A DNA stretch of 64,000 nucleotides from the NCBI RefSeq assembly GCF_017348835.2, contig NZ_CP071375.1, one strand, 5' to 3'. A model generated the notes under the pieces. That model worked only from the letters and a program-made list of their open reading frames with translations, was not told where the DNA came from and made no database searches. Each line of letters begins with the position of its first letter. Within the stretch, counting starts at the first letter, position 1. The position numbers were made by a program, and so were the translations under genes. Shown piece after piece: positions 44,600-64,000 of this stretch. Source of the DNA: Escherichia coli (GTDB taxonomy: Bacteria > Pseudomonadota > Gammaproteobacteria > Enterobacterales > Enterobacteriaceae).

Positions 44600-45607
44600 A
44601 TGAAGATAATCTGCAGATTATTATTGGCGATGGCATGTTTGTGTCTGGCAAACATATCCTGGGCTACTGTTTGTGCAAATAGTACTGGCGTAGCAGAAGA
44701 TGAACACTATGATCTCTCAAATGTCTTTAATAGCACCAATAACCAGCCAGGGCAGATTGTTGTTTTACCTGAAAAATCCGGCTGGGTAGGTGTATCAGCA
44801 ATTTGTCCACCCGGCACGCTGGTGAATTATACATACCGTAGTTATGTCACCAACTTTATTGTTCAGGAAACTATCGATAATTATAAATATATGCAATTAA
44901 ATGATTATCTATTAGGTGCGATGAGTCTGGTTGATAGCGTGATGGATATTCAATTCCCCCCGCAAAATTATATTCGTATGGGAACAGATCCTAACGTTTC
45001 GCAAAACCTTCCGTTCGGGGTGATGGATTCTCGTTTGATATTTCGTTTAAAGGTTATTCGGCCCTTTATTAACATGGTGGAGATCCCCAGACAGGTGATG
45101 TTTACCGTGTATGTGACATCAACGCCTTACGATCCGTTGGTTACACCTGTTTATACCATTAGTTTTGGTGGCCGGGTTGAAGTACCGCAAAACTGCGAAT
45201 TAAATGCCGGGCAGATTGTTGAATTTGATTTTGGTGATATCGGCGCATCGTTATTTAGTGCGGCAGGGCCGGGTAATCGGCCTGCTGGTGTCATGCCGCA
45301 AACCAAGAGCATTGCGGTCAAATGTACGAATGTTGCTGCGCAGGCTTATTTAACAATGCGTCTGGAAGCCAGTGCCGTTTCTGGTCAGGCGATGGTGTCG
45401 GACAATCAGGATTTAGGTTTTATTGTCGCCGATCAGAACGATACGCCGATCACGCCTAACGATCTCAATAGCGTTATTCCTTTCCGTCTGGATGCAGCTG
45501 CGGCAGCCAATGTCACACTTCGCGCCTGGACTATCAGTATTACCGGTCAAAAACCGACCGAAGGGCCGTTTAGCGCGCTGGGGTATTTACGCGTCGATTA
45601 TCAATGA
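44600..45607 (+). CDS. sfmH: fimbrial adhesin-like protein
   Basis: 335 aa; synteny after usher. Confidence 0.85.
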   Translation: MKIICRLLLAMACLCLANISWATVCANSTGVAEDEHYDLSNVFNSTNNQPGQIVVLPEKSGWVGVSAICPPGTLVNYTYRSYVTNFIVQETIDNYKYMQLNDYLLGAMSLVDSVMDIQFPPQNYIRMGTDPNVSQNLPFGVMDSRLIFRLKVIRPFINMVEIPRQVMFTVYVTSTPYDPLVTPVYTISFGGRVEVPQNCELNAGQIVEFDFGDIGASLFSAAGPGNRPAGVMPQTKSIAVKCTNVAAQAYLTMRLEASAVSGQAMVSDNQDLGFIVADQNDTPITPNDLNSVIPFRLDAAAAANVTLRAWTISITGQKPTEGPFSALGYLRVDYQ

Positions 45608-46768: not shown

Positions 46769-47010
46769 AGTTACCAGTCTCATAGGAGCGGACAATTTTC
46801 CGTTAGGGCGGTAAATTGTACTTTGATACATGAAAATACGGGTTTTCTTGATTCAGACGCGCAGCGGTGTGCATTTGTTTGCCGCTTTAGCGAAATAAAT
46901 CAGAAAATCAGACGCGGTCGTTCACTTGTTCAGCAACCAGATCAAAAGCCATTGACTCAGCAAGGGTTGACCGTATAATTCACGCGATTACACCGCATTG
47001 CGGTATCAAC

Positions 47011-47087
47011 GCGCCCTTAGCTCAGTTGGATAGAGCAACGACCTTCTAAGTCGTGGGCCGCAGGTTCGAATCCTGCAGGGCGCGCCA
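47011..47087 (+). tRNA. argU: tRNA-Arg (anticodon UCU)
   Basis: 77 nt gcgcccttagctcagttggatagagcaacgaccttctaagtcgtgggccgcaggttcgaatcctgcagggcgcgcca; cloverleaf with anticodon loop cuUCUaa. Confidence 0.95.
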
Positions 47088-47102
47088 TTACAATTCAATC
47101 AG

Positions 47103-48265
47103 TTACGCCTTCTTTATATCCTCCATAATTCCACAGTGGGACATATTTGGGACATGATCACCAAAAATGTCGTCTATTTTCCTTGCATGCTCTGTCAAAT
47201 GATTAGGCGCAAGGTGAGCATACCTACGAACCATTTCTATGGACTCCCATCCGCCCATTTCCTGAAGCACAGATAATGGGACGCCTGACTGGATCAGCCA
47301 GCTTGCCCAGGTGTGTCTGAGGTCATGGAAACGGAAATCTTCAATTCCTGCACGACGACAAGCTGATAGCCATGATGTCTTGCTGTCGATGCGCATCTTC
47401 CTGACCGCAGGCGTTGATGTTCCATCTGCTCGCTTAGCCGCCTTGGTATGTACAAACACCCATTTGTGATGCTTGCCTATTTGATCACGCAACACTTTAC
47501 AGGCGGTATCGTTCAGCGCCACACCAATGGCGCGGTTTGATTTGCTCTCTTCTGGATTCACCCAGGCAACTCGTCGCTGCATGTCGATTTGTTGCCATTC
47601 CAGATTTATGATGTTCGACTTTCTCAGACCAGTTGCCAGCGCAAACTTGACGACAGATTTCAGTGGTTCGGGGCACTCATCAATAAGGCGTTTTGCTTCC
47701 TCCTTTTCCAGCCATCTGACTCGCTTGTTTCTGACCGCTGGTATCTTGATGACAGGCGCTTTTTCCAGCCACTTCCAGTCGCGTTCTGCAGCACGGAGAA
47801 TGGCCTTTATCATGGCAAGATGCTTTGCCTTTGTCTGAGTTGATACTGGCTTTGGTTCATAAACAGGCGGTTCTTTACCTTTCCTGATGGCGGCCTGAAC
47901 TTTCTGTTTCCATATTTCTTTCGTCTTTCTGTTATGCATTCTGCTTACAGCAGAGTAAATCTTTGCCTCCGAGATATCTTTAAGCCTTATACCCTCAAAA
48001 TGTTCAAGCCAGAACTCAATCCGGCTTTTATCTGAATCGAGAGATTTTTATCAGCTTTTTCCTCAAGCCATCTTAGGCAGGCCTCTTCAAAAGTGACATC
48101 AGGTAAATCCCCTAGCTTTTCTACTCGCCAGAGTTCTGCTTTTCGCTTGTCGTGCAACTCCTGAGCTTGCCGCTTGTCCTTTGTGCCAAGAGATTCCTTA
48201 ATTCGTTTCCCGCCCGGGAGCGAATACGAGGCATACCATATTTCATTTCTGCGGAAGAGTGACAT
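47103..48265 (-). pseudogene. intD: tyrosine integrase, reading frame interrupted by a frameshift
   Basis: N-terminal 74 codons ([19 protein letters not shown]..., ORF 47987-48265) and C-terminal catalytic part (ORF 47103-47939, HxxR ... Y) are in different frames; the break is at a 5-nt homopolymer at 48045-48049. Confidence 0.8.
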
Positions 48266-48492
48266 TTTCTTTCCTCTGTTATGCCATCACCCGCGCTCAC
48301 CTGGACAGTATGCAGCGGAGACTGAAGCGCCGCAATGCAAGCTTGCCGTGTTGTGAGGTAAGGAGATTTTGGCTTGGTTGGATCTTTACGTGTTGCCTGT
48401 AGGCGGCCTGTTCGTATCCAGTTGGTGGCGGTTGGTCTGGATATCTTAAGAAACTGACAGGCCTCATCGAGTGTGAGGCTGTATGGCTCCAT
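48121..48492 (-). CDS. xis: excisionase-like (AlpA/Xis-type HTH) protein; 3' end overlaps int start
   Basis: Start [31 protein letters not shown] at 48492 (ATG overlaps upstream stop as TAATG); 3' boundary uncertain. Confidence 0.55.
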
Positions 48493-48797
48493 TATTTCAC
48501 CTCTTGCTGTGTCATTGTTGAAAAATGGATACCAGCTCGTTGCTGCCAGACGATCCAACCGAGAGTCATATCCCATGCCATGTATTCGTTATCGCCGTTT
48601 TTTGCTCTCCGACGATCTACTAAGTCACCGAAACGCTTTTCCATGAATAATTCATAGGCTTCGCGTTCATCTGGCTCTACTTCCAGAGATACGAGTGCGA
48701 TTTCATAAGCACGGCGCTCAATATCGTCTCGAACCTCTAGGCTGCTGATTCGTTCTTTGATTTCTTTAATCAGTTCTTTATTGGTAAATGTGGTCAT
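48492..48797 (-). CDS. hypothetical phage early protein (resembles CPS-53 YfdT position)
   Basis: 101 aa acidic ORF, coupled to neighbours. Confidence 0.55.
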   Translation of the reverse strand: MTTFTNKELIKEIKERISSLEVRDDIERRAYEIALVSLEVEPDEREAYELFMEKRFGDLVDRRRAKNGDNEYMAWDMTLGWIVWQQRAGIHFSTMTQQEVK

Positions 48798-49153
48798 TAT
48801 GCTCCAGCCTCCGGTGCTTTTGGCATTACTGCCCAGTGAGTGATATTGACGTTTTCAAGGTCCCCGACCTGAAATGTCCACTGCCATTCTCCGGTTTCTT
48901 TTTGTCCCCAGTTGTACCAGAGAGAACGCCAGCCAATCAGCCAGCCTTCTCCATTAGCATCAAATAACAGAACACTTTCATTTGCTGGTGGCAGTTCAGC
49001 TGACACTGGTATTATTTTGTTTTCCAGTGCCGCACATTTAGCTTCAAGCGCGTCGAATTTACGTAACAGGTACTCAGCATTTGTTTCGTTCACTTTCAGA
49101 TCTCGCGGTACACATTTCCCGCGAAGAAACCCTTCCATTTCGAAAACATTCAT
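48797..49153 (-). CDS. hypothetical phage protein (resembles CPS-53 YfdS position)
   Basis: ~118 aa; ATG at 49153 overlaps stop of upstream HD gene (ATGA). Confidence 0.55.
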   Translation of the reverse strand: MNVFEMEGFLRGKCVPRDLKVNETNAEYLLRKFDALEAKCAALENKIIPVSAELPPANESVLLFDANGEGWLIGWRSLWYNWGQKETGEWQWTFQVGDLENVNITHWAVMPKAPEAGA

Positions 49154-49686
49154 GCGCATTTGCGTAACTCCGATAAATCGTTAAAACGTTCCATAAACAT
49201 CCCGTAGGCATGACCCGGTGCCAGTGGAATCACGTTGAACATCTCTGTTGCCGGGATGCCTTCCAGTACAGGCCAGAAAGAGCCATCATCAAGCCCGAGA
49301 TCGCGGCGTTCGGTTGCCAGCATGATGAGATCGGCATATTTCACGGGTGTACTCATAACTAGGGGTAACCCGTATTTCTCACGGATTACGGCGTCTATTT
49401 TTTCTTCCATTTGTTTATAGTCAGGAAGAAGGCGTTTCAGTGGTGCGGGAATGTCCTGGCAATACGCTTCTGTTGCATCATGCATTAACGCTTCAAAAGC
49501 AAATTCCTGCGGCACCAGCTGGCTGCAAAGAACCGCATGTTGGGCGACGCTGTAGAAGTGCGAAAGATGACCGGCAAAGCGACAGATATTTGAAAGGGAA
49601 ACCGCGATATCGTTAATATCGATGTCGTCTTTATTTATCTTGTCATAATAAAAATGCTTCCCGGAAAAAGTTTTAATAAATGACAT
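49150..49686 (-). CDS. HD-domain phosphohydrolase (YfdR-like)
   Basis: 178 aa from MSFIKTF with GGAG 8 nt upstream; H...HD motif (ALMHDATEAY). Confidence 0.7.
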   Translation of the reverse strand: MSFIKTFSGKHFYYDKINKDDIDINDIAVSLSNICRFAGHLSHFYSVAQHAVLCSQLVPQEFAFEALMHDATEAYCQDIPAPLKRLLPDYKQMEEKIDAVIREKYGLPLVMSTPVKYADLIMLATERRDLGLDDGSFWPVLEGIPATEMFNVIPLAPGHAYGMFMERFNDLSELRKCA

Positions 49687-49813
49687 TTTGTTCTCCACGT
49701 ATATGCACTGCACCGCGCTGAATTCTGGTAAAAGGAAGCCCTCACCATCCGGTGATTATTGAGTTAATTACGTTTCCATAAATGCCCCCGCAGGGGCATT
49801 TGCAGTAATGAAA

Positions 49814-50638
49814 TCAGGCGGTGAAAGTACCAATAAAGGTTTCTACTTTGCTGTCTTTGAATTTCTCAACAAGCAGATCACGAAATTCGTTAGCCATTTC
49901 TTCCTGCACCGCTTCCAGCTGAATAATGCGCAGAACCAGTACAGGACGATCGCCAGTGATAATGCTGAGGCGTAATTTAAACGGACGTTCTTTCAGGCCT
50001 TCAAACGGAACGCATTTAAATTCAAATGCCACTGGCATAATGTCTTTGGTCTTCGCTTCGACAGACTCCATCAGGGAGCGTTTGCCGCTGAAGTCATTAT
50101 CTTCAAAATCAGCGGTCTGGTTTGCTTCAATCGTGATTTTACGGACTGCCGCAGCCGCTTTTGTTGCCTGAATGGCGTCACCATTAGCATCAAAGCCCAC
50201 AAGGTAGTCGGCCCAGTCTTCGATCCATTCTGCCAGTGACTTCTGGGAGTTACGCTCGCCGTTAACAGACAACAGAGCAGAGAACGGTGCTGTCTTTTTC
50301 AGTTTGAGAGTGGCAGTGTTATCTGCGTGACCTGGCTCATCAATAGTACCCAGGTTAAGCACACTGACGGCACGCATATTATCGGCATCGATAAAGCAGC
50401 GGGTGCCTTCATCTGCAAGATCTTTAGAATAACGGGTAAAATCATCGATGCAGGCAGTGGAAAGTGCACCACGGAAACGGAAGCGATTTAAATTAAATTT
50501 TTCCAGATCATGAATGCGGAAATTCTCAGGCAATGCCACAGCATCGGCACCAATCTTACTGATAATTTCATTAACACCCTGAGCAGAAATAAGGGCATGG
50601 ATTTGATTAATTGCAGTTGCGTCTAAGTTCTGAGACAT
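49814..50638 (-). CDS. DUF2303-type phage protein (YfdQ-like)
   Basis: 274 aa. Confidence 0.65.
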
Positions 50639-50703
50639 AATAAGTCCTCACTATATAAAGATATTCAGTGATGAGATAAATAATCAGTTTATTACGAACG
50701 ATA

Positions 50704-51066
50704 TTAACGACCTGCTGCGCGGAGTTTTCCGTCAGGTTCACCGGCAAGAGTCAGTAATTGTCCCTGGTCTTCCTGCAGAATAGTCAGGCGACCACCGCGA
50801 TTGACATACATCGGCGTTTCGGTGGTGTCTTCTTCGGAAATTTTCCCGCGGTTAGTCGGGCGAATATATGAGAGTTTGTGTTTGATTTTCACACGGTTCT
50901 CATCAAATGGTTCGATTTCCAGGTTGAGTGAGACCTTACCTTTGGTTTTCGTGTTCATCACACCGGAAGCGACTTCACTGAGAACTGCGCCGATTTTGGT
51001 TTCAAATACGCCGCCGTCCAGCTCCCCGATAAATGCCTGCACATCAGTACTGCGTTCGCTAGCCAT
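50704..51066 (-). CDS. hypothetical phage protein (YfdP-like), first gene of the leftward block
   Basis: 120 aa from MASERSTDVQ; GGAG upstream. Confidence 0.55.
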   Translation of the reverse strand: MASERSTDVQAFIGELDGGVFETKIGAVLSEVASGVMNTKTKGKVSLNLEIEPFDENRVKIKHKLSYIRPTNRGKISEEDTTETPMYVNRGGRLTILQEDQGQLLTLAGEPDGKLRAAGR

Positions 51067-51536
51067 TTTGCTGCTCCTCATCATATCGACCCTGCAAGGC
51101 CGATTAGTTTCTCCACAAAACAGAGAAGAACACCTGTGGTGGCCGCCGCCCGGATGGATTGGGTTATGAGCCCGTCGTCCGGTGATGCTCTTCTCTGTTT
51201 TGTAAAAAGGACGGTACCAGCCGGAAGCAAGGGTACAAGCTGGTACCGCCAGGACTACACACAGCATAAAGTTGTGGTGCCGGGTGCCCTCCCGGTGCCT
51301 GGCGAAGGTTGCACACCAGGCGGGTGGGTATCCACAGAAGGTCGACTGTCAGCCTCAACCTTAACCCGCGTGCGCTGAGCCGCATTCACCACAACGCTAA
51401 GGATTCTCTCTGGTTGAAAATACTTAGCTGTTATGTGCCTGCTTTTAGCCACATCAGGCGAGGTGGACCTGGTTATTCCCCAACAACAAGGATTCGGTTA
51501 ATCTGGATATCCCCAACAACAATAAGAGTATTCAAT

Positions 51537-52052
51537 GTGATCGCTGAATTAACGGCAGCAATGACGGCTATTCGTGAAACAGCCCAGATTGCAAAACTAA
51601 TGAACGAGGCAAAAACTCAAGCTGAAGTAAATGCGGCTATTGGTGAGCTGAACTCAAAGCTTGCGTCTATTCAGCGCGAATGCGTGTCTCTCGTTGAACT
51701 GGTGGGCTCTTATCAAGAAATAAATGCTTCTCTCAAAGCTAAAATTGCAGAATTCGAAAACTTTGAGGCTCAGACGGAAGGCTATATCCTTAACCAACTT
51801 GAGTCGGGTACTTTTGTATACTCGAAGGAGGTAATCGTGAACGGTGGCAGCATAACCATGCATCTTTGCCCAAAATGTTTTGGACAAAAGATAGTATCGA
51901 TACTTCAACCATTCCCGGTTAGCGAAGATGAGCTTTTTCATAAAAGCAGGTGCCTCCACTGTGAAAATAAGTTTCTGATGAATAAAAATCCGGATTACGT
52001 ATCGCCTCCATCCATTGAGGAGTTGTCCAGAAAACTTAACGGCAATCTGTAG
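51537..52052 (+). CDS. orphan protein: N-terminal heptad-rich helix plus C-terminal CxxC...CxxC zinc ribbon; convergent with pL
   Basis: ~171 aa from GTG 51537 (or 163 aa from ATG 51561); protein-like composition; own terminator at 52092-52115. Confidence 0.55.
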   Translation: MIAELTAAMTAIRETAQIAKLMNEAKTQAEVNAAIGELNSKLASIQRECVSLVELVGSYQEINASLKAKIAEFENFEAQTEGYILNQLESGTFVYSKEVIVNGGSITMHLCPKCFGQKIVSILQPFPVSEDELFHKSRCLHCENKFLMNKNPDYVSPPSIEELSRKLNGNL

Positions 52053-52091
52053 ATTACTACTGTTGTGGATATCCAGATTGTTAAAGAGCTA

Positions 52092-52115
52092 AGCGTCCTG
52101 TAGGGCGCTTTTTTG
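52092..52115 (+). terminator. intrinsic terminator of the orphan plus-strand gene
   Basis: agcgtcc tgta gggcgct followed by TTTTTT. Confidence 0.6.
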
Positions 52116-52280
52116 TTGCTAACGAATCATCCTGGACTTCATATGCCCCAGGCGGCTACTTCGTGGGCGTCCTGCCTGTTCGTTTTTGACATTTACTGAC
52201 TGCTTACGACACATGCACCGTGTTGCAACCAGATTTTGTTGTAATCCTGTAGTTGGTCTGGAACAAAAGATAAAATTAAA

Positions 52281-52317
52281 TTGCGAGATATGCAAGCGAT
52301 ATTTGCGAGGTATGCAA
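52281..52317. promoter_or_regulatory. OL-type operator pair with likely leftward promoter pL
   Basis: Two 15-bp sites ttgcgagatatgcaa and ttgcgaggtatgcaa, 22 bp apart, just past the 3' end of cI; same motif as sites between cI and cro. Confidence 0.55.
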
Positions 52318-52371
52318 ATTTATAGGTAGTAAAAAGCCACCTTTCGGTGGCCGATGGATGGGATATTGAGG

Positions 52372-53064
52372 TTAATTATGTCTCTTAAGGGTTTGCGACT
52401 GACTGATTAAGACCTTTCCAAAGACCATGAATCGGTGTTCGTTTTCGCTAGTAATTCCCCATTCACGGTAAATCTGGTTATCAGAAATCACCAGCAGTTT
52501 GTCAGGAATCATTTGAAGTCTTTTAACGTATATTTTGTCATCAAAACCAAAGACATATATACCATCACCATCAAACTGATTGATGCTGACATCAACGAAG
52601 ATGAGATCTCCTGGCTCAATGGTTGGACACATACTGTCCCCACGAACGTTGATAACTTTGATGTGATTGGCTGGTCGTCCGCCGAACATTGATACAGCAT
52701 TATCAGTTCTGTATTCGATGGCATGAATCACATCAATGACATCACCGCCCTGGATAAGGCCATTTCCCGCACTGGCACTGATATCCAGCATTTCAATACG
52801 GAACACATCCTTCACCTGCGCAACATCCTCATTATTACTGTTTTTATATACAGTATTACTTTTGTGGGCAGAGGTAAAGAGATCAGCAATATCAACACCT
52901 AAGCTCTTGGCAATATTACTCAGTGTTTGTTCGGTAAATTGTTTTTGCTTACCCGTTTCTAAGCGCGAGATGTTCGCCGCATCTACTCCTATTGCTTCAG
53001 CGAGATCGGCGATTTTCATGTTCTTCGCTTGGCGAAGTTGTCTGACTCGGTTTCCTATGTTCAT
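52372..53064 (-). CDS. cI: CI-type prophage repressor (XRE HTH plus S24 LexA-like peptidase domain)
   Basis: 230 aa; N-terminal HTH (MKIADLAEAIGVDAANISRLETGK); C-terminal GDSM ... K peptidase motif. Confidence 0.85.
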   Translation of the reverse strand: MNIGNRVRQLRQAKNMKIADLAEAIGVDAANISRLETGKQKQFTEQTLSNIAKSLGVDIADLFTSAHKSNTVYKNSNNEDVAQVKDVFRIEMLDISASAGNGLIQGGDVIDVIHAIEYRTDNAVSMFGGRPANHIKVINVRGDSMCPTIEPGDLIFVDVSINQFDGDGIYVFGFDDKIYVKRLQMIPDKLLVISDNQIYREWGITSENEHRFMVFGKVLISQSQTLKRHN

Positions 53065-53084
53065 GCGTTTATTACATTTCTTTA

Positions 53085-53147
53085 TTGCGTGATAAGCAAA
53101 TCAACTTGCGCAAAATAATTGCGTGAAATAACATGCATAACGCGCAA
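53085..53147. promoter_or_regulatory. OR operator region with divergent pRM/pR
   Basis: ttgcgtgataagcaa (53085-53099), ttgcgcaa core, atgcataacgcgcaa (53133-53147) between divergent cI and cro. Confidence 0.55.
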
Positions 53148-53161
53148 TATTTGGAGGGCAT

Positions 53162-53422
53162 ATGCAATCACCATTACGAAATGTGCGTAAGGCGCATGGT
53201 TTCACTTTGCAGCATGTTGCTGCGGGTGTTCAAGTCAATCCAGCGACGTTGAGTCGTATTGAGAGGCTGGAGCAGATTCCATCTATCGAGCTTGCAGAAC
53301 GTTTAGCCAATTTTTTTAAGGGTGAAGTCAGCGAAATGCAGATTCTTTATCCGGCACGTTTTCAATCTAGCCAAAACCAGAATGGGTTTAAACCACAGGA
53401 ACAGGAGGTGAACCGTGGGTAA
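53162..53422 (+). CDS. cro: Cro-like HTH regulator
   Basis: 86 aa; HTH (GFTLQHVAAGVQVNPATLSRIE); GGAGGG upstream; divergent from cI. Confidence 0.75.
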   Translation: MQSPLRNVRKAHGFTLQHVAAGVQVNPATLSRIERLEQIPSIELAERLANFFKGEVSEMQILYPARFQSSQNQNGFKPQEQEVNRG

Positions 53423-53966
53423 GCATCACTGGAAAGTAGAAAAACAGCCTGAGTGTTACGTGAAAGCTGTCAGAAAAACTATCGCAGCGTTGCCGGGGGG
53501 GTACGCTGAAGCTGCTGACTGGCTGGATGTAACAGAGAACGCATTATTTAACCGCCTTCGTGCCGATGGCGATCAGATTTTCCCGCTGGGATGGGCAATG
53601 ATTTTGCAACGTGCTGGTGGAACTCACTTCATTGCTGACGCTGTGGCGCAGTCTGCAAATGGCGTCTTTGTGTCTCTTCCTGATGTCGAGGATGTGGACA
53701 ACGCCGATATCAACCAACGCCTGCTGGAAGTCATTGAACAGATCGGCAGTTATTCAAAACAGATTCGTTCAGCAATTGAAGACGGTGTAGTGGAACCGCA
53801 TGAGAAGACAGCAATTAACGATGAGCTGTACCTCTCAATTTCGAAGCTGCAGGAGCATGCAGCACTGGTCTACAAAATCTTTTGCGTTTCAGAAAGTAGT
53901 GACGCCCGCGAGTGTGCAGCTCCGGGCGCCGTGGCGTGTCGTGACTGTGGAGAAACTAACGCATGA
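53415..53966 (+). CDS. CII-like / YdaT-like regulatory protein
   Basis: 183 aa; position after cro; overlaps cro end. Confidence 0.55.
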
Positions 53967-54301
53967 ACAGTTTAACAACACACTACCGTCGCTCGCAACT
54001 GATTGCGCTTCCTGTACCGGGTGGAAAAGCGAAGGTGGAGTATTGCTATGCAGTAAATGTACCAGGTGACAGGGAAATTGTAACCCACAGCTTTGCAGAG
54101 TGGGCTGTGGGTGATTTCAACCGGCAGAAGGAGACAGTCCTTTGCGACAAGTTAACCGCTGGTTCAAAGATCACTACGGAGTGCCCGTCAGAGTCATTCG
54201 TTGGGAGCCGGAAACACAACGGGTTATCTACCTCCGTGAAGGCTATGAGCATGAGTGCTTCAGCCCGCTCGAACAGTTTCGTCGTAAATTCAGGGAAATA
54301 G
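53963..54301 (+). CDS. hypothetical protein; 3' half may belong to an alternative frame (possible frameshift or two small coupled genes)
   Basis: 112 aa ORF; a second frame from TTG 54142 to stop 54318 gives protein-like ...[55 protein letters not shown]. Confidence 0.4.
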
Positions 54302-54310
54302 AGGTCGGTC

Positions 54311-55252
54311 ATGAGCACTAAATTAACCGGCTATGTATGGGATGGTTGCGCTGCGTCAGGCATGAAATTATCCAGCGTGGCAATTATGGCCCGCCTGGCT
54401 GATTTCAGTAATGACGAAGGTGTGTGCTGGCCATCAATTGAAACCATTGCCCGTCAGATTGGCGCGGGGATGAGTACCGTCAGAACGGCTATCGCACGGC
54501 TGGAAGCAGAAGGCTGGTTAACGCGTAAGGCGCGTCGCCAGGGTAACCGCAATGCGTCGAATGTTTATCAGCTTAACGTTGCGAAGCTTCAGGCAGCGGC
54601 ATTTTCTCAACTGTCAGATTCTGACCCGTCAAAATCTGACGCATCAAAATCTGACCCGTCAAAATTTGATGCGTCGAAATCTGGCAAAAAAGCGGGTTTT
54701 CACCCGTCAGAATCTGGCGGGGATCCGTCAGTAAAATCAAAACATGATCCGTCAGATAAAAAAACTTCTCGTCCGGACGCTTCGCAACCGGACACGCAGA
54801 AGGCTGAACAGGAGTTTTTAACTCGCCATCCTGATGCGGTTGTATTCAGCCCTAAAAAGCGCCAGTGGGGAACGCAGGATGATTTGACCTGCGCACAGTG
54901 GCTCTGGAAAAAAATCATCGCCCTGTACGAGCAGGCCGCCGAATGTGACGGCGAGGTGGTTCGTCCCAAAGAACCGAACTGGACAGCCTGGGCAAACGAA
55001 ATTCGCCTGATGTGTGTGCAGGATGGTCGTACTCACAAACAAATCTGCGAGATGTACAGCCGCGTCAGCCGCGATCCGTTCTGGTGCCGTAACGTGCTCA
55101 GCCCGTCGAAGCTGCGGGAAAAATGGGATGAGCTTTCCCTGCGCTTATCGCCGTCCGTCAGCACGTACACCGAAAAACGCGAAGACCCGTACTTCAAAGC
55201 CAGTTACGACAACGTGGACTACAGCCAGATCCCGGCAGGATTCAGGGGGTGA
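54311..55252 (+). CDS. replication initiator (O-like; N-terminal winged-helix; C-terminal region possibly YdaU/DUF1376-like) with internal origin iterons
   Basis: 313 aa; central repeat-encoded low-complexity region; position after cII. Confidence 0.65.
   Translation: MSTKLTGYVWDGCAASGMKLSSVAIMARLADFSNDEGVCWPSIETIARQIGAGMSTVRTAIARLEAEGWLTRKARRQGNRNASNVYQLNVAKLQAAAFSQLSDSDPSKSDASKSDPSKFDASKSGKKAGFHPSESGGDPSVKSKHDPSDKKTSRPDASQPDTQKAEQEFLTRHPDAVVFSPKKRQWGTQDDLTCAQWLWKKIIALYEQAAECDGEVVRPKEPNWTAWANEIRLMCVQDGRTHKQICEMYSRVSRDPFWCRNVLSPSKLREKWDELSLRLSPSVSTYTEKREDPYFKASYDNVDYSQIPAGFRG
54620..54762. repeat. putative replication origin: ~7 iteron copies (core CCGTCAG) followed by an A-rich tract
   Basis: tctgacccgtcaaaa / tctgacgcatcaaaa / tctgacccgtcaaaa / tttgatgcgtcgaaa tandem 15-mers plus cacccgtcagaatctgg, gatccgtcagtaaaatc, gatccgtcagataaaaaaa. 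Confidence 0.6.
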
Positions 55253-55254
55253 TC

Positions 55255-55743
55255 ATGAGTCTTTTGAATGACGTTCAGAAATTCATTGAAGCCCATCCGG
55301 GCTGTACTTCCGGAGACATTGCGGATGCTTTTGCAGGTTACTCACGGCAGCGCGTTCTGCAGTCAGCAAGCAAGTTACGTCAGAGTGGGCGTGTGGCTCA
55401 CCGTTGTGAAGGAGATACACACAGACATTTCCCGCGCCTGACTGAGAGAGCGCAGGATCCGGAACCACAACCAGTTCGTGAAACCAGACCTGTGCGCAAT
55501 TTCTATGTCGGCACTAACGACCCGCGGGTGATTTTGTGCCTGACCCGCCAGGCGGAAGAACTGGAGTCCAGGGGCTTATACCGTCGTGCTGCAACGGTGT
55601 GGATGGCGGCATTCCGTGAAAGCCACTCCCAGCAAGAGCGAAACAATTTTCTTGCGCGTCGTGAGCGGTGTTTACGGAAAAGCAGCAAGCGCGCTGTATC
55701 GGGTGAAGAGTGGTATCTGTCAGGGAATTACGTGGGGGCTTAA
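55255..55743 (+). CDS. hypothetical regulator, possibly PerC-family-like
   Basis: 162 aa from MSLLNDVQ; GGGGG 7 nt upstream; basic C-terminus with LYRRAATVWMAAF motif. Confidence 0.4.
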   Translation: MSLLNDVQKFIEAHPGCTSGDIADAFAGYSRQRVLQSASKLRQSGRVAHRCEGDTHRHFPRLTERAQDPEPQPVRETRPVRNFYVGTNDPRVILCLTRQAEELESRGLYRRAATVWMAAFRESHSQQERNNFLARRERCLRKSSKRAVSGEEWYLSGNYVGA

Positions 55744-56069
55744 TGACGACGTTAACTCAATGCCAGCAGCAGGTGCTGGATATGCTGATTTCTTACCAGA
55801 AAGAACGTGGCTTCCCGCCAACCAATCAGGAGGTGGCTACCATGCTGGGATACCGTTCAGTGAATGCAGCGGTGGAGCATCTTCGCGCACTGGAGAAAAA
55901 AGGCGTCATCACGATAAAGCGTGGCGTGGCCCGGGGCATCACGCTTCATACCGCGGTGAAGGACGACGACAGCGAGGTGGCCGGGATTATCCGCGCACTG
56001 CTTGCTGGTGAGGAAAACGCCAGGCTGCGTGCAACCCACTGGTTACATGAGAGGGGCCTGAAAGTATGA
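55743..56069 (+). CDS. LexA N-terminal DNA-binding-domain-only paralogue (no S24 peptidase domain)
   Basis: 108 aa MTTLTQCQQQVLDMLISYQKERGFPPTNQEVATMLGYRSVNAAVEHLRALEKKGVITIKRGVARGITL aligns along the whole LexA winged-helix domain ([68 protein letters not shown]). Confidence 0.7.
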   Translation: MTTLTQCQQQVLDMLISYQKERGFPPTNQEVATMLGYRSVNAAVEHLRALEKKGVITIKRGVARGITLHTAVKDDDSEVAGIIRALLAGEENARLRATHWLHERGLKV

Positions 56070-56455
56070 AGCTGATCCTGCCTTTTCCGCCCAGCGTGAA
56101 CACGTACTGGCGACACCCCAACAAAGGGGCGTTTGCTGGTAAGAGCCTGATAAGCGCGGCGGGGCGAAAATTCCAGAGCGCGGCGTGCGCAGCAATAGTT
56201 GAGCAGTTACGTCGTCTGCCGAAACCAACGTCGGCACCTGCTTCAGTGGAGATCGTGTTGTTTCCTCCGGATAACAGGATCCGCGATCTGGACAACTATA
56301 ACAAGGCGCTGTTTGACGCCCTGACCCACGCGGGGGTGTGGGAAGACGACAGTCAGGTGAAAAGAATGCTGGTGGAGTGGGGACCGGTTATCCCGGAAGG
56401 GAAGGTCGAGATCACTATCAGTAAGTACGAGAAAACGGCGGGTGCAGCTGCCTGA
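56066..56455 (+). CDS. rusA: Holliday junction resolvase RusA
   Basis: 129 aa; LPFPPSVNTYW ... DLDN motifs. Confidence 0.85.
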   Translation: MKLILPFPPSVNTYWRHPNKGAFAGKSLISAAGRKFQSAACAAIVEQLRRLPKPTSAPASVEIVLFPPDNRIRDLDNYNKALFDALTHAGVWEDDSQVKRMLVEWGPVIPEGKVEITISKYEKTAGAAA

Positions 56456-56474
56456 TCAAGAGGAGAAACGAAGT

Positions 56475-57284
56475 ATGAATAATCTGATGGTCATTGATGG
56501 TATTGAAGTTCGTCGTGATGCTTATGGGCGTTACAGCCTGAACGATCTGCATCGCGCAGCAGTAGCATCTGGTGCAAATGCCAGAACCAAGGAGCCAGGA
56601 AAGTTTCTTTCCAGCCAACAAACTGTTGAGCTTGTTCATGAATTAACCAACACCCAGAATTTGGGTGTTGACCCGGTGAGTGTGATTCATGGGGGAAATG
56701 AACGGGGAACGTATGTCTGTAAGGAACTGGTGTATGCCTATGCAATGTGGATCAGCCCGTCATTCCATCTGAAGGTGATCCGTACTTTCGATATGGTAAC
56801 CAGCGCGCCGGAAAAGTTATCCGGACAGGTTGCTGACAAGATGCAGGCTGGCGTGATTCTGCTGGACTTTATGCGCCGGGAGTTAAATCTGTCTAACTCA
56901 TCTGTGCTTGGGGCCTGTCAGAAACTCCAGGAGGCTGTTGGCTTACCGAATCTGGCACCGCGCTATGCCATTGATGCACCTGCTGACGCGCCTGATGGCT
57001 CAAGCCGCCCGACGCTGTCGCTGAGTGCACTGCTGAAGCAGTATGGTATCCGCCTGACGGCTAATCAGGCATATCACCAGATGGCGAAGCTGGGGATCGT
57101 TGAACAACGCGAACGATACAGCCGTACCGCGATTAACAACATCAAAAAATTCTGGTCGCTGACAGCGAAAGGTTGCATGTTCGGCAAGAACATCACCAGT
57201 CCCGCAAATCCGCGCGAGACGCAGCCGCATTTCTTCGAATCCCGATTCCCTGAGCTGTTAAAGCTGCTCGATACCGTTCATTGA
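56475..57284 (+). CDS. KilA-N domain protein (putative antirepressor-like)
   Basis: 269 aa from MNNLMVIDGIEVRRDAYGRYSLNDLHRAA; AGGAG upstream. Confidence 0.65.
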   Translation: MNNLMVIDGIEVRRDAYGRYSLNDLHRAAVASGANARTKEPGKFLSSQQTVELVHELTNTQNLGVDPVSVIHGGNERGTYVCKELVYAYAMWISPSFHLKVIRTFDMVTSAPEKLSGQVADKMQAGVILLDFMRRELNLSNSSVLGACQKLQEAVGLPNLAPRYAIDAPADAPDGSSRPTLSLSALLKQYGIRLTANQAYHQMAKLGIVEQRERYSRTAINNIKKFWSLTAKGCMFGKNITSPANPRETQPHFFESRFPELLKLLDTVH

Positions 57285-57285
57285 G

Positions 57286-58281
57286 GTGAACGTGAGAGCG
57301 CTACTGACCCCCGAGATTGCCCCGCGTATGGGGATCGTATTGTTCAGACCCGGTTCAGAGCTGATGCCCCTGTTTATGCAGGGGCGTGTCCTGCTGGAGC
57401 CTGAGCCGGAACGTTATTCATCTTTTGCCAGTGGTGCCGTTCCGGCTGCATCACAACCGCTGGCGGATGATCCTGCCGTTCGGGCCGTGTTCCGCAATGA
57501 GGCAGTGATCCGTCGTGCTGGTGGCGTGGAATGTCTTGAAAGCTGGTTACTTCGTGAAAAAGGCTGCCAGTGGCCTCATTCCGACTGGCACAGCGAGAAC
57601 ATGACCACAATGCGACACGCGCCGGGCGCAATCCGTCTGTGCTGGCACTGCGATAACCAACTGCGCGATCAGTTCACGGAACGGCTGGAATCAATGGCAA
57701 CGGATAACTGTGCCCGCTGGGTGTTGTCTGTTGTGCGTCGGGATCTCGGTTTTGATGACAGTCACGTTGTGACAATGCCGGAACTGTGCTGGTGGCTGAT
57801 TCGTAATGATCTGGCGGATACCTTACCGGAAAGTGCAGCCCGTAAGGCACTGAGATTACCGAAGCCTTTTGTGCCGTCTGTCACCCGGGAAAGTGACCTG
57901 GTGCCTTCGGTTCCTGCCACCAGCATCATCCAGAATAAAGCGAAAAAGGTGCTGGCGCTGAAAGTGGATCCGGAGTCGCCGGACTCTTTTATGTTACGCC
58001 CAAAACGTCGCCGCTGGGTTAATGAAAAGTACACGCGATGGGTTAAGACGCAGCCGTGCGCATGTTGTGGAAAACCTGCTGATGATCCCCACCACCTGAT
58101 AGGCCACGGTCAGGGTGGAATGGGGACAAAAGCGCATGACCTCTTTGTGTTGCCTTTGTGCAGAAAGCATCACGACGAGCTGCATGCGGATACTGTGGCA
58201 TTCGAAGAGAAGTATGGCTCCCAGCTGGAGCTGATATTTCGTTTTATCGATCGTGCGCTGGCGATTGGTGTGCTGGCCTGA
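57286..58281 (+). CDS. DUF968 (YdfU-like) protein with C-terminal Cys/His cluster
   Basis: 331 aa; [12 protein letters not shown] ... CRKHHDELH. Confidence 0.65.
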
Positions 58282-58298
58282 TTTTGTGGAGAAAGTTG

Positions 58299-58682
58299 AT
58301 GCGTGATATTCAGATGGTTCTTGAGCGTTGGGGAGCGTGGGCGGCTAATAATCATGAAGATGTGACTTGGTCGTCCATTGCCGCCGGTTTTAAGGGATTA
58401 ATTCCTTCAAAAGTAAAATCTCGCCCACAATGTTGTGACGATGACGCGATGATCATTTGCGGGTGCATGGCCCGTCTGAAAAAGAACAACAGCGACTTGC
58501 ACGATTTATTAGTAGATTATTATGTAGTCGGTATGACATTCATGTCACTGGCAGGTAAGCATTGCTGCTCTGATGGTTATATCGGGAAAAGGTTACAGAA
58601 GGCTGAGGGCATAATTGAAGGGATGTTAATGGCATTAGATATCCGGTTAGAGATGGATATCGTTGTTAATAACTCTAATTAA
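58299..58682 (+). CDS. quuD: late-gene antiterminator Q
   Basis: 127 aa from [18 protein letters not shown]; Cys-rich zinc-binding region. Confidence 0.8.
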
Positions 58683-58870
58683 TATGCCAATTGTTTACTA
58701 AAAATTATTAAAAATGGGGCGTTGCAACGCCCCCAAAAATAAAGGGTAATATATAACAGAAGGTTTATATAGTTAGAAGCAAGGTTGTGCTCCTAAAGGA
58801 AGTGGCTTGAGGGAGCCACTTATATGTTGGGGAGGCAAAGCCTCCCGCAACATATCTTTTAGTAATCAAA

Positions 58871-59953
58871 TTAGAACTGGTAAACCATACCTACAGCAAC
58901 GATATCATCGGTAGCAACGCCAGATGCTTTCGTGAAATCGCTCTTATCAATCAGGTTGATTTTGTAATCAACAAAAGTGGACATATTTTTGTTGAAGTAA
59001 TAGGTTGCACCTACATCAATATATTCAACCAGGTCCTGATCACCCCACGCACCCAAGTCTTTTCCTTTAGATTGCAGGTAAGCAACGGACGGACGCAGAC
59101 CGAAGTCGAACTGATATTGTGCAACTACTTCGAAGTTTTGTGCTTTGTTGGCAATATGGTTATTACCAAAAACAGTCATGTTCTGGGTTTCAGAATAGGT
59201 GGTAGCCAGATAGATGTTGTTCGCATCATATTTCAGACCAGCTGCCCATACTTCAGCATTTTGACCAGATGCATTCAGGCTGTTGTTACCGTAGATAACC
59301 TGATTATTAGTGCGGTCAGATTTAGCATAGGTTGCACCTACACCGAATCCTTCATACTCATACGTAGTGGAGAAACCGAAACCATCACCATTAGCTTCAG
59401 TTACGTCAGTGCGGTCATTTTTACCCTGATACTGAGCAGCAAAGTTCAGACCATCAACCAGACCAAAGAAGTCGTTGTTACGATAAGTTGCAACACCAGT
59501 GGTGCGACCAGTCATGAACACATCTGTTTGGGTCCAGGTATCGCCACCGAATTCTGGCAGAACGTCAGTCCACGCACCGATGTCATATGCTACACCGTAG
59601 TTACGGCCGTAATCGATTGAGCCGTAGTCCCCGAATTTCAGGCCTGCAAATGCAAGACGGGTTTTGTCTTTGGAGGAGCCTTGAGATTCAGCGCGGTTGC
59701 CTTTGAATTCATATTCCCACTGACCGAAACCAGTCAGTTGATCGTTGATTTGGGTTTCACCTTTGAAGCCAAGACGGGCATAAGTAGTATCACCATCATC
59801 TGCATCATTAGAGGAGAAGTAGTGCTTGGCATTAACTTTCCCATATAGATCCAGCTTGTTACTGTCTTTATTATAAATTTCAGCTGCCTGAGCAGACATC
59901 GCCATCAGTACTGATGCGGCTACAGCAGAAATTGCCACTGTTAATTTTTTCAT
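58871..59953 (-). CDS. nmpC: prophage-encoded outer membrane porin (OmpC/OmpF family), uninterrupted
   Basis: 360 aa; signal peptide; C-terminal ...VGMVYQF beta-barrel signature. Confidence 0.9.
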
Positions 59954-60541
59954 CGTGAGCCCTTTTTTTTGAACTATTATTAAAAAATGATGTCACTGCG
60001 CGATAAATATTCATCTAATCAATGTGATTATTTCAAGATGTAAGTTTTAGTTTCTCATTTAATTTGTGAGGTAGATCTCTATTTTTATCTGAACTTTTTC
60101 TATCGAAACCTATTTATGGCTCTTATTTGAACAAAAATAAACCTATTAGCTAATTTATATTAATGGCTGTTATTTATGGAGGTTCTATAATTCGGCGGTT
60201 TAATTTAAATCAACTAAAAATAACGGCGGAAATTATTTGTAGGATATTTGTTGAGGTTTTCTTATGTATTTGTGGTGGTGTTTTGAACACTCGGTAGCAT
60301 TCTCATAAATATCATTCAGTGGTTTACGTACGTAAAAAATTGGTTATGCTGTTAAGAGTGGTTACTTCGTCACACAGCTTAAACCCGCCGTCGAGCTGGT
60401 TTTTCCATTTTTTGAGTCTCGATATTAGCTGATAACTCAATACCTGAGTTATTCACTGACTCCGAGTCTGTTACGTTTCTGCTTTTTTGCGATACGTTGT
60501 ATTCCCTCAATTTACACCCGCTTTGTCTGCGAGGTGGGGTT

Positions 60542-60757
60542 ATGAAATCCATGGATAAGTTAACAACGGGTGTCGCCTATGGCACCTCAGCAGGTAGTGC
60601 CGGTTACTGGTTTTTACAGCTGCTCGATAAAGTTACGCCCTCACAGTGGGCAGCAATAGGTGTGCTGGGTAGCCTGGTATTTGGCCTGCTGACGTACCTG
60701 ACAAACCTTTATTTCAAGATTAAAGAAGATAAGCGCAAGGCTGCGAGAGGTGAATAA
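60542..60757 (+). CDS. essD: holin (class II, phage 21 S-like)
   Basis: 71 aa from MKSMDKL; two TM segments; stop overlaps lysozyme ATG. Confidence 0.85.
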
Positions 60758-61254
60758 TGCCTCCATCATTACGAAAAGCCGTTGCTGCTGCTATTGGTGG
60801 CGGAGCAATTGCTATAGCATCAGTGTTAATCACTGGCCCAAGTGGTAACGATGGTCTGGAAGGTGTCAGCTACATACCATACAAAGATATTGTTGGTGTA
60901 TGGACTGTATGTCACGGGCATACAGGAAAAGACATCATGCTCGGTAAAACGTATACCAAAGCAGAATGCAAAGCACTCTTGAATAAAGACCTTGCCACTG
61001 TCGCCAGACAAATTAACCCGTACATCGAAGTCGATATACCGGAAACAACGCGCGGCGCTCTTTACTCATTCGTTTACAACGTGGGTGCTGGCAATTTCAG
61101 AACATCGACGCTTCTTCGCAAAATAAACCAGGGCGATATCAAAGGCGCATGTGATCAGCTACGTCGCTGGACATACGCTGGCGGTAAGCAATGGAAAGGC
61201 CTGATGACTCGCCGTGAGATTGAGCGTGAAATCTGTTTGTGGGGTCAGCAATGA
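60757..61254 (+). CDS. rrrD: phage lysozyme (endolysin)
   Basis: 165 aa; N-terminal SAR-like hydrophobic segment; lysozyme motifs. Confidence 0.88.
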
Positions 61255-61712
61255 ACAGAGTAACCGCGATTATCTCCGCTCTGGTTATCTGCATCATCGT
61301 CTGCCTGTCATGGGCTGTTAATCATTACCGTGATAACGCCATTACCTACAAAGCCCAGCGCGACAAAAATGCCAGAGAACTGAAGCTGGCGAACGCCACC
61401 ATTACTGACATGCAGCAGCGCCAGCGTGATGTTGCTGCACTGGATGAAAAATACACGAAGGAGTTAGCTAATGCGAAAGCTGAAAATGATGCTCTGCGTG
61501 ATGATGTTGCCGCTGGTCGTCGTCGGTTGCACATCAAAGCAGTCTGTCAGTCAGTGCGTGAAGCCACCACCGCCTCCGGCGTGGATAATGCAGCCTCCCC
61601 CCGACTGGCAGACACCGCTGAACGGGATTATTTCACCCTCAGAGAGAGGCTGATCACTATGCAAAAACAACTGGAAGGAACCCAGAAGTATATTAATGAG
61701 CAGTGCAGATAG
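61251..61712 (+). CDS. rzpD: i-spanin (Rz)
   Basis: 153 aa from [18 protein letters not shown]-terminal TM plus coiled coil. Confidence 0.85.
61471..61653 (+). CDS. rzoD: o-spanin lipoprotein (Rz1) embedded in +1 frame of Rz
   Basis: 60 aa; lipobox VVVGC; proline-rich. Confidence 0.8.
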
Positions 61713-61743
61713 AGCTGCCCATATCGATGGGCAACTCATGCAA

Positions 61744-62037
61744 TTATTGTGAGCAATACACACGCGCTTCCAGCGGAGTATAAATGCCTAAAGTAATAAA
61801 ACCGAGCAATCCATTTACGAATGTTTGCTGGGTTTCTGTTTTAACAACATTTTCTGCGCCGCCACAAATTTTGGCTGCATCAACAGTTTTCTCCTGTCCA
61901 ATTCCCGAAACGAAGAAGTGATGGGTGATGGTTTCCTTTGGTGTTACTGCTGTCGGTTTGTTTCCAACAGTAAACGTCTGTTGAGCACATCCTGTAATAA
62001 GCATTGCCAGAGCGGCAGAAAACAACATTTTTTTCAT
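61744..62037 (-). CDS. borD: Bor-family lipoprotein
   Basis: 97 aa from MKKMLFSAALAMLITGC. Confidence 0.88.
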   Translation of the reverse strand: MKKMLFSAALAMLITGCAQQTFTVGNKPTAVTPKETITHHFFVSGIGQEKTVDAAKICGGAENVVKTETQQTFVNGLLGFITLGIYTPLEARVYCSQ

Positions 62038-62399
62038 CTTATTATCCTGCATTGTTAAAAACGGCAGAATCCTATGTGACAACAATTAAACGATAATTAA
62101 ATGGATTGATGAAAATTAAAACTATATAGGTGTACGCTCAGACTATTGGAGGAAGTTGGGGACACTCAGAATCCTGTGGAATGAAATAAACCGGTCTATC
62201 CGTCTATTACCCTTTTAGCTGCGCTGTATCGTCGCCGTATTCCCGCATTAACCATGACCGTAGCCCGACGGGGAATTCCTTCTGCGTGAGTGTGCGGGAA
62301 TAATCAAAAACGATGCACACCGGGTTTTACTGTGCTGACAGACGCAGGGTTACCCTCATAGTCGCTTTTCCGGTGCGATGGTGGAAGAAACCGGGATGT

Positions 62400-62594
62400 T
62401 TATTCATCATCACTTTGGATTGATGTATATGCTCTCTTTTCTGACGTTAGTCTCCGACGGCAGGCTTCAATGACCCAGGCTGAGAAATTCCCGGACCCTT
62501 TTTGCTCAAGAGCGATGTTAATTTGTTCAATCATTTGGTTAGGAAAGCGGATGTTGCGGGTTGTTGTTCTGCGGGTTCTGTTCTTAGTTGACAT
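62400..62594 (-). CDS. ribbon-helix-helix small protein (YlcI/DUF3950-like)
   Basis: 64 aa; basic N-terminus then RHH-like NIRFPNQMIEQINIALEQKG. Confidence 0.6.
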   Translation of the reverse strand: MSTKNRTRRTTTRNIRFPNQMIEQINIALEQKGSGNFSAWVIEACRRRLTSEKRAYTSIQSDDE

Positions 62595-62780
62595 GAGGTT
62601 GCCCCGTATTCAGTGTCGCTGATTTGTATTGTCTGAAGTTGTTTTTACGTTAAGTTGATGCAGATCAATTAATACGATACCTGCGTCATAATTGATTATT
62701 TGACGTGGTTTGATGGCGTAGATGCACGTTGTGACATGTAGATGATAATTATTATCATTTTGCGGGTCCTTTCCGGCGAT

Positions 62781-62810
62781 CCGACAGGTTACGGGGCGGC
62801 GACCTCGCGG
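62781..62810. other. lambda-type cos site (cosN with 12-nt cohesive end GGGCGGCGACCT at 62793-62804)
   Basis: ccgacaggttacg|gggcggcgacct|cgcgggttttcgc matches the lambda cohesive-end junction as recalled; cosB-like region follows before Nu1. Confidence 0.8.
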
Positions 62811-62982
62811 GTTTTCGCTATTTATGAAAATTTTCCGGTTTAAGGCGTTTCCGTTCTTCTTCGTCGTAACTTAATGTTTTTATTTAAAACACCCTCTGAA
62901 AAGAAAGGAAACGACAGGTGCTGAAAACGAGCTTTTTGGCCTCTGTCGTTTCCTTTCTCTGTTTTTGTCCGTGGAATGAACA

Positions 62983-63528
62983 ATGGAAGTCAACAAAAAG
63001 CAGCTGGCTGACATTTTCGGCGCGAGTATCCGTACCATTCAGAACTGGCAGGAGCAGGGAATGCCCGTTCTGCGGGGTGGTGGCAAGGGTAATGAAGTGC
63101 TTTATGACTCTGCCGCCGCCATAAAATGGTATGCCGAAAGGGATGCTGAAATTGAGAACGAAAAGCTGCGCCGGGAAGTTGAAGAACTGCGGCAGGCCAG
63201 CGAGACAGATCTCCAGCCAGGGACTATTGAGTACGAACGCCATCGACTTACGCGTGCGCAGGCCGACGCACAGGAGCTGAAAAATGCCAGAGACTCCGCT
63301 GAAGTGGTGGAAACCGCATTCTGTACTTTCGTGCTGTCGCGGATCGCAGGTGAAATTGCCAGTATTCTCGACGGGATCCCCCTGTCGGTGCAGCGGCGTT
63401 TTCCGGAACTGGAAAACCGACATGTTGATTTCCTGAAACGGGATATCATCAAAGCCATGAACAAAGCAGCCGCGCTGGATGAACTGATACCGGGGTTGCT
63501 GAGTGAATATATCGAACAGTCAGGTTAA
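62983..63528 (+). CDS. nohD: terminase small subunit (lambda Nu1-like)
   Basis: 181 aa MEVNKKQLADIFGASIRTIQNWQEQGMPVLRGGGKGNEV..., lambda Nu1-like along full length. Confidence 0.92.
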   Translation: MEVNKKQLADIFGASIRTIQNWQEQGMPVLRGGGKGNEVLYDSAAAIKWYAERDAEIENEKLRREVEELRQASETDLQPGTIEYERHRLTRAQADAQELKNARDSAEVVETAFCTFVLSRIAGEIASILDGIPLSVQRRFPELENRHVDFLKRDIIKAMNKAAALDELIPGLLSEYIEQSG

Positions 63529-64000
63529 CAGGCTGCGGCATTTTGTCCGCGCCGGGCTTCGCTCACTGTTCAGGCCGGAGACACAGACCGCCGTTGAATG
63601 GGCGGATGCCAATTACTATCTCCCGAAAGAATCCGCATACCAGGAAGGGCGCTGGGAAACACTGCCCTTTCAGCGGGCCATCATGAATGCGATGGGCAGC
63701 GACTACATCCGCGAGGTGAATGTGGTGAAGTCTGCCCGTGTTGGTTATTCCAAAATGCTGTTGGGTGTTTATGCCTACTTCATAGAGCATAAGCAGCGCA
63801 ACACCCTTATCTGGTTGCCGACGGATGGCGATGCCGAGAACTTTATGAAAACCCACGTCGAGCCGACCATCCGTGATATTCCATCGCTGCTGGCGCTGGC
63901 CCCGTGGTATGGCAAAAAGCACCGGGATAACACGCTCACCATGAAGCGTTTCACCAATGGGCGTGGTTTCTGGTGCCTGGGCGGTAAAGCGGCAAAAAAC
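63506..64000 (+). CDS. terminase large subunit (lambda A-like), N-terminal part; continues beyond window
   Basis: GTG at 63506 overlapping Nu1 end; translation VNISNSQVNRLRHFVRAGLRSLFRPE... Confidence 0.85.

Follow-up and report, generated by a model that had tools for sequence, protein, structure and literature searches.

Layout of the argU junction and the split integrase gene

The window, by which we mean the whole 64,000-nt stretch of E. coli DNA analysed here, contains the junction between the tRNA gene argU and one end of a lambda-like prophage. An integrase gene in two pieces lies at this end, followed inwards by xis. The features on which the argument depends are the following.

47011–47087, plus strand: argU, tRNA-Arg with anticodon UCU (ARAGORN; a tRNA-Arg is also annotated in strains PE164 and 05-3629)
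47043–47089, no strand given: 47-bp att core, comprising the final 45 nt of argU and the next 2 nt
47088–64000, no strand given: left arm of the lambda-like prophage, continuing past the window end (from the PE164 annotation of the same DNA)
47103–48265, minus strand: intD-type tyrosine integrase pseudogene of 1163 nt, one short of the 1164 nt that encode 387 aa in intact copies
47103–47939, minus strand: C-terminal ORF of 278 aa, beginning at native M110 and containing the whole catalytic domain
47987–48265, minus strand: N-terminal ORF of 92 aa, with native residues 1–73 followed by 19 out-of-frame residues (from the ORF list)
48045–48049, minus strand: run of five A on the coding strand (A5; T5 on the plus strand), which is A6 in intact copies and falls in codons K73–K74
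48121–48492, minus strand: xis, encoding an excisionase of 123 aa, apparently intact and overlapping the start of int

A preliminary description of this DNA had assigned the N-terminal and C-terminal parts of the integrase to different frames, and the ORF list agrees. It had also followed the C-terminal frame upstream to a TAA adjoining the A run. That TAA lies at 48050–48048: the coding strand reads GAT AAA AAT CTC, the run occupying 48049–48045 and being preceded by the T at 48050, so that the frame of the 278-aa ORF is open only as far as a stop that overlaps the first two A's. Native residues 74–109 are found in neither ORF.

Comparison with strain 05-3629 defines the lesion precisely. Across 1601 nt (47000 to 48600) the two sequences are identical bar one extra A in 05-3629, whose intD is a single uninterrupted 1164-nt frame encoding 387 aa (WP_052892382.1). 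The window gene departs from this intD at one point only: the A6 run at int nt 217–222 (K73, K74) is one A short. Hence the earlier proposals that a homopolymer frameshift disrupts the integrase, and that one added A would restore a frame of about 387 aa, are both borne out; the repaired product is identical to the annotated IntD of 05-3629. PGAP labels the gene in PE164 ‘intD integrase, frameshifted’, with an internal stop. Set against intact orthologues in this way, the frameshift is to be read as a specific lesion and not as a chance pattern.

The repaired protein matches Pfam Phage_integrase (PF00589) over residues 184–355 (model positions 1–171/172, E 2.6e-46), and PHROG integrase families also match. 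With the 92-aa ORF as query, the PHROG integrase profiles match from residue 1 and stop at residues 74/76; we infer that the native residues 1–73 retained there correspond to the arm-binding part. The catalytic Arg, His-x-x-Arg and Tyr motifs are present, all in the 278-aa ORF, as located by alignment to HP1 integrase, in which LATGLRKS is paired with [17 protein letters not shown] with HVLRHTFAS, and RYAHL with RYAHF; the alignment to HP1 integrase and XerA takes in the catalytic motifs of this ORF. Domain limits are those of the Pfam, PHROG and PDB sequence alignments, and the conserved Lys and second His/Trp were read by eye only. The 278-aa ORF is without the first part of the core-binding region, and no Shine-Dalgarno-like sequence was seen before its ATG at 47939. 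Absent from the window gene is the uninterrupted frame linking DNA-binding and catalytic parts that a working enzyme needs; the gene is a pseudogene of the tyrosine recombinase/phage integrase family and not a working member of it. Its assignment to the IntD, or DLP12, type found at argU is based on 99.9% identity to the intD of many genomes, on the adjoining 3′ end of argU, which lies 15 nt from the int stop, and on the argU repeat at the far end of the element.

The att core, xis and the remainder of the prophage

argU is the integration target, and the end of the prophage restores the 3′ part of the gene. The genes beyond the tRNA, fimZ and the sfm fimbrial genes, identify the site as the argU locus of E. 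coli. A second copy of the att core, perfect at 47/47 positions, was found by blastn-short of the argU region against PE164 3555000–3595100; it lies outside the window, at PE164 3569144–3569190 between envY and ompT. The two repeats bound an element of ~43 kb in PE164.

The xis product matches the excisionase profile phrog_2907 along practically its whole length (residues 1–116 on profile positions 2–117 of 117, E 1.1e-45), and the window gene, which overlaps the int start by ~145 nt, is identical to xis of the A6 strain 05-3629. At the xis site of 05-3629, PGAP gives only a 22-aa ‘partial helix-turn-helix’ fragment, probably an annotation artefact. A second lesion in xis was suspected from this ‘partial’ label and from the 64-aa Xis of one Logan assembly (L008), and was rejected, because the short Xis comes from an extra deletion in that noisy assembly and the 123-aa ORF of the window matches the full profile.

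Apart from the xis-int module, the prophage arm within the window comprises early genes, a cI-like repressor gene with an S24 peptidase domain, the Q antiterminator gene, a porin gene, lysis genes, iss and the gene for the small terminase subunit. The corresponding element in PE164 shows few annotated defects. It has a cI-like repressor with peptidase domain, replication, Q and lysis genes, and its lambda-like morphogenesis module is complete, with genes for terminase, portal, capsid, tail and tail fibres. The prophage looks recently active, and the int deletion is the only lesion evident in the window's part of it.

Two smaller features of the arm deserve mention. The small gene at 51081–51392 (minus strand) is annotated ‘hypothetical protein, frameshifted’ by PGAP in both PE164 and 05-3629, and these two strains differ within it by one C at window position 51287. 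The porin gene at 58871–59953 (minus strand) is annotated ompC and is nmpC-like; an A8 run (~59962) ends 10 nt before its ATG, and is A9 in 05-3629.

Inheritance and rarity of the A5 run

The window corresponds to positions 3595492–3659491 of the PE164 chromosome, reverse-complemented, with 0 indels and 5 SNPs over 64 kb. With 05-3629 as outgroup, two of these SNPs are window-specific and three PE164-specific, and the two sequences therefore represent separate isolates of one clone, both with A5. The PE164 pseudogene (NZ_CP114128.1, LZG51_RS17820) has this A5 in the same prophage, co-linear throughout and free of indels; found in PE164 only are an int nonsense mutation (E359*), a change of the xis start from ATG to ATA and one missense change in the LexA-like gene of the prophage. 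The window contains ~270 homopolymers of at least 5 nt, none of which differs in length between it and PE164.

Draft assemblies extend the set of carriers. The 92-aa and 278-aa ORFs are found together, unchanged, in GCA_032490275.1, of which 20.8 kb matches the window exactly, and in GCA_019365205.1, whose contig ends at window position 48324; they also occur together in the Logan assemblies SRR14865169 and SRR27418558 and in four similar places. Several A5-bearing Logan run assemblies match the window base for base along their whole length. The Logan contig L018 breaks precisely where the att repeat starts (47043). Graph assemblies of short reads break at repeats in this way, and from such breaks we infer that the drafts and Logan assemblies derive from short reads.

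Among complete genomes A5 is rare. A 49-nt query, built so that A6 copies cannot seed a match, found A5 in one of 5,426 complete RefSeq E. coli genomes, the pig strain PE164 (NZ_CP114128.1). The 81-nt segment around the run is held by 1,635 complete RefSeq E. coli genomes; among the matches listed, PE164 alone is exact and the 39 others span 82 nt. Since the 92-aa ORF arises from A5 only, it serves as a marker of A5, and it is on record on 53 contigs (NCBI, ENA, Logan).

Comparison of the whole window with 05-3629 was tried as a gauge of homopolymer noise and proved uninformative, because that chromosome is 1–2% diverged and carries frameshifts too, in its capsid and fimH genes; PE164, which shows no indel against the window, was used for the comparison instead. 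At the fimH site, a type 1 fimbrial adhesin gene of the sfm cluster annotated fimH, the C6 run at 44956 is intact in the window; 05-3629 has C5 there and the gene is annotated as frameshifted, so the reference has homopolymer lesions of its own. A segment of ~2.6 kb between cueR and ybbJ (window ~880–3514), encoding a protein with a YadA C-terminal domain and small hypothetical proteins, is absent from 05-3629 and looks like a small island.

Consequences for the prophage, and competing readings

The best explanation as a whole, which we hold with high confidence, is that a real, inherited one-base deletion made the integrase a pseudogene and stranded the prophage. The prophage is PhiR29-like, lambdoid and integrated at argU, and the change of its integrase run from A6 to A5 would most simply be due to replication slippage. 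A ribosome starting at the usual codon would meet a stop after 73 native and 19 wrong residues, leaving the catalytic domain in the other frame, and the only possible restart, at M110, would be without a ribosome-binding site and without part of the core-binding region. Because of this early termination, the out-of-frame catalytic domain and the poor restart, no full-length integrase is expected. No block to excision other than the integrase lesion is visible, since xis and the 47-bp att core look intact, as do the second att copy and the structural genes in PE164. The prophage would thus remain in the chromosome, incapable of self-directed excision; after SOS induction, in-place replication and cell lysis would be possible, with few or no excised genomes unless integrase were provided in trans. 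In lambda, an int-defective lysogen, once induced, copies the prophage and the adjoining DNA without excision and dies, yielding very few phage. Most likely, as far as the sequence allows a prediction, the prophage described here would likewise be inducible but unable to excise by itself.

The preliminary description had offered loss of excision and sequencing error as alternatives; the former is retained as a prediction, and the latter is dropped, because A5 is common to a SNP-distinct, indel-free sister genome, to drafts and to Logan assemblies. Were the run miscalled, the strain would truly have A6 and an intact integrase. The change is indeed a one-base loss in a homopolymer, A5 occurs in only a single complete genome, and the same miscall apparently occurs in noisy assemblies: L006 and L008 have extra one-base indels near xis, and a further A, at int nt 503, is missing from both L012 and L013. 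Error-prone data can therefore yield miscalls here too, and the worry is reasonable in general. It does not apply to the clone of the window, in which at least two isolates share A5 with private SNPs on both sides and with no indel in 64 kb and ~270 homopolymers, and for which two drafts with different contig ends and several Logan assemblies also read A5. The same indel recurs in independent isolates and assemblies and no other homopolymer varies in length; on this record the deletion is real and inherited, and the chance of an error is slight. Even less chance attaches to a rescue of the frame by recoding, in which a programmed −1 ribosomal frameshift or transcriptional slippage at the run would restore a full-length, functional integrase. 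The two frames do overlap at an A-rich stretch, where a −1 shift would give the native protein apart from one residue. However, the zero frame reads U AAA AAU; this does not fit the slippery heptamer X XXY YYZ, since a −1 shift would place UAA in the P site. Folding of the 100 nt downstream is not significantly stronger than that of shuffled sequence (MFE −22.8 kcal/mol, with −18.7 as the mean of the shuffles; z −1.3; 22 of 200 shuffles were as good). RNA polymerase slippage requires runs of about 8–9 or more, and this run, with 5 nt only, is too short. Nor is the two-frame layout conserved: the 39 other E. coli matches listed, and 14 phage int copies at at least 99% identity, have the extra base and one frame. 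Later stops have accumulated downstream, E359* in PE164 and W224* in SRR7223132, as expected for a dead gene. Recoding of the integrase is very unlikely.

A different kind of alternative accepts that the gene is dead and keeps the prophage mobile, through an integrase of the same specificity that is encoded elsewhere, or brought in by a superinfecting PhiR29-like phage, and acts in trans with the intact Xis. The att core and xis are intact, phages with near-identical int are common, and defective lambdoid prophages are known to interact in O157 Sakai (PMC2669165). The PE164 genome, moreover, contains a second int-like match (two places in all, at blastn sensitivity). Against this, the 105 kb of PE164 examined does not include that second match, no integrase is available from the window, and most non-intD matches in E. 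coli are only 60–80% identical. Tyrosine integrases at 60–80% identity normally differ in att specificity. We consider complementation improbable, and prefer an inherited deletion that leaves the prophage stranded.

The nearest known system is DLP12 of E. coli K-12, which resembles the window element in its intD-family integrase, in having argU on one side with fimZ beyond it, and in the genes at its far end, ompT and envY, between which the att copy at that end is situated in PE164 as in DLP12. The two differ in that K-12 has kept the extra base and an intact intD, whereas the int of the window is frameshifted. DLP12 in K-12 has lost most of its structural genes, and the int lesion may represent an early step toward a cryptic prophage of this sort. 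DLP12 measures 21.3 kb (PMC3105296), as compared with ~43 kb for the prophage here, which in PE164 has a full lambda-like structural module. DLP12, whose intD is intact, does still excise, at a frequency below 1 per 100,000 cells (PMC3105296). The prophages Sp3, Sp11 and Sp12 of O157:H7 Sakai are, like that of the window, lambdoid with a disrupted integrase, but they have other integrases and sites and further defects; they were predicted to be non-excisable and are not among the nine circularising prophages of that strain (PMC2669165), in which ‘regional replication’ of prophage flanks was also seen (PMC2669165). The lesion is thus of a known kind, an ordinary step in prophage decay, and is already annotated as a pseudogene in the sister genome.

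Intact counterparts are found in phages. The int genes of Kati, PhiR29, PhiR49, 2G7b and ev243 share at least 99% identity with that of the window and all have the extra base; for PhiR29_1 and PhiR29_2 (PV340556 and PV340557), PhiR49_1 and Kati (PP925833) the identity is 99.6–99.9%. PhiR29_1 and PhiR29_2 further cover 91% of the 16.9-kb prophage arm at 97% identity. The PhiR29, PhiR49 and Kati sequences were deposited as phage genomes with the host named, and each has a single 1164-nt integrase gene where the window has A5; these intact int copies belong to working phages. Our search of the literature on PhiR phages from ECOR strains, or on frameshifted, non-excising integrases, found nothing directly relevant.

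In practical terms, the annotation of this prophage should list its integrase as a pseudogene, and the strain would not be expected to release phage or to lose the prophage by excision. Because no excision is expected, the cargo would be fixed in place; it consists of iss and the porin gene and, outside the window, ompT. The A5 clone, set beside near-identical A6 strains and viable PhiR29-like phages, forms a clean natural pair that could be used to study the effects of an induced, non-excisable lambdoid prophage on the host and on flanking genes.

The loss of the same A recurs outside this clone. At least three int haplotypes show it, and for each there is an A6 counterpart whose sequence is otherwise the same or almost the same: the window clone and 05-3629, SRR7223132 and NZ_CP045712.1, and SRR30896577 and NZ_CP062855.1 (A5 and A6, respectively; 4206 versus 4207 nt at 100% for the last pair). 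A6 has become A5 at int nt 217–222 in L010 (SRR7223132), L011 (SRR30896577), L005 and L009, on other intD haplotypes with different prophage early regions; for each of them RefSeq supplies a twin with A6, and L010 also has W224*. This recurrence suggests slippage at the run, or recurrent miscalls in some data sets. A more far-reaching idea, that the A6 run is a recurrent loss-of-function site through which selection grounds useful argU prophages (with iss, the porin gene and ompT), is speculative and we think it unlikely to be right.

PE164 has accumulated further knock-outs at the same module. No other sample on record has its truncated 249-aa ORF. The int E359* and the xis start-codon change (ATG to ATA) lie at window positions 47192 and 48490; all three PE164-private SNPs in the 64 kb lie in the prophage, two of them in the 1.4-kb xis-int module. 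The placing of these three SNPs, noticed after the fact, exceeds the expectation for neutral decay on very few events; as part of the unlikely idea above, it would hint at selection against leftover Xis or truncated Int activity.
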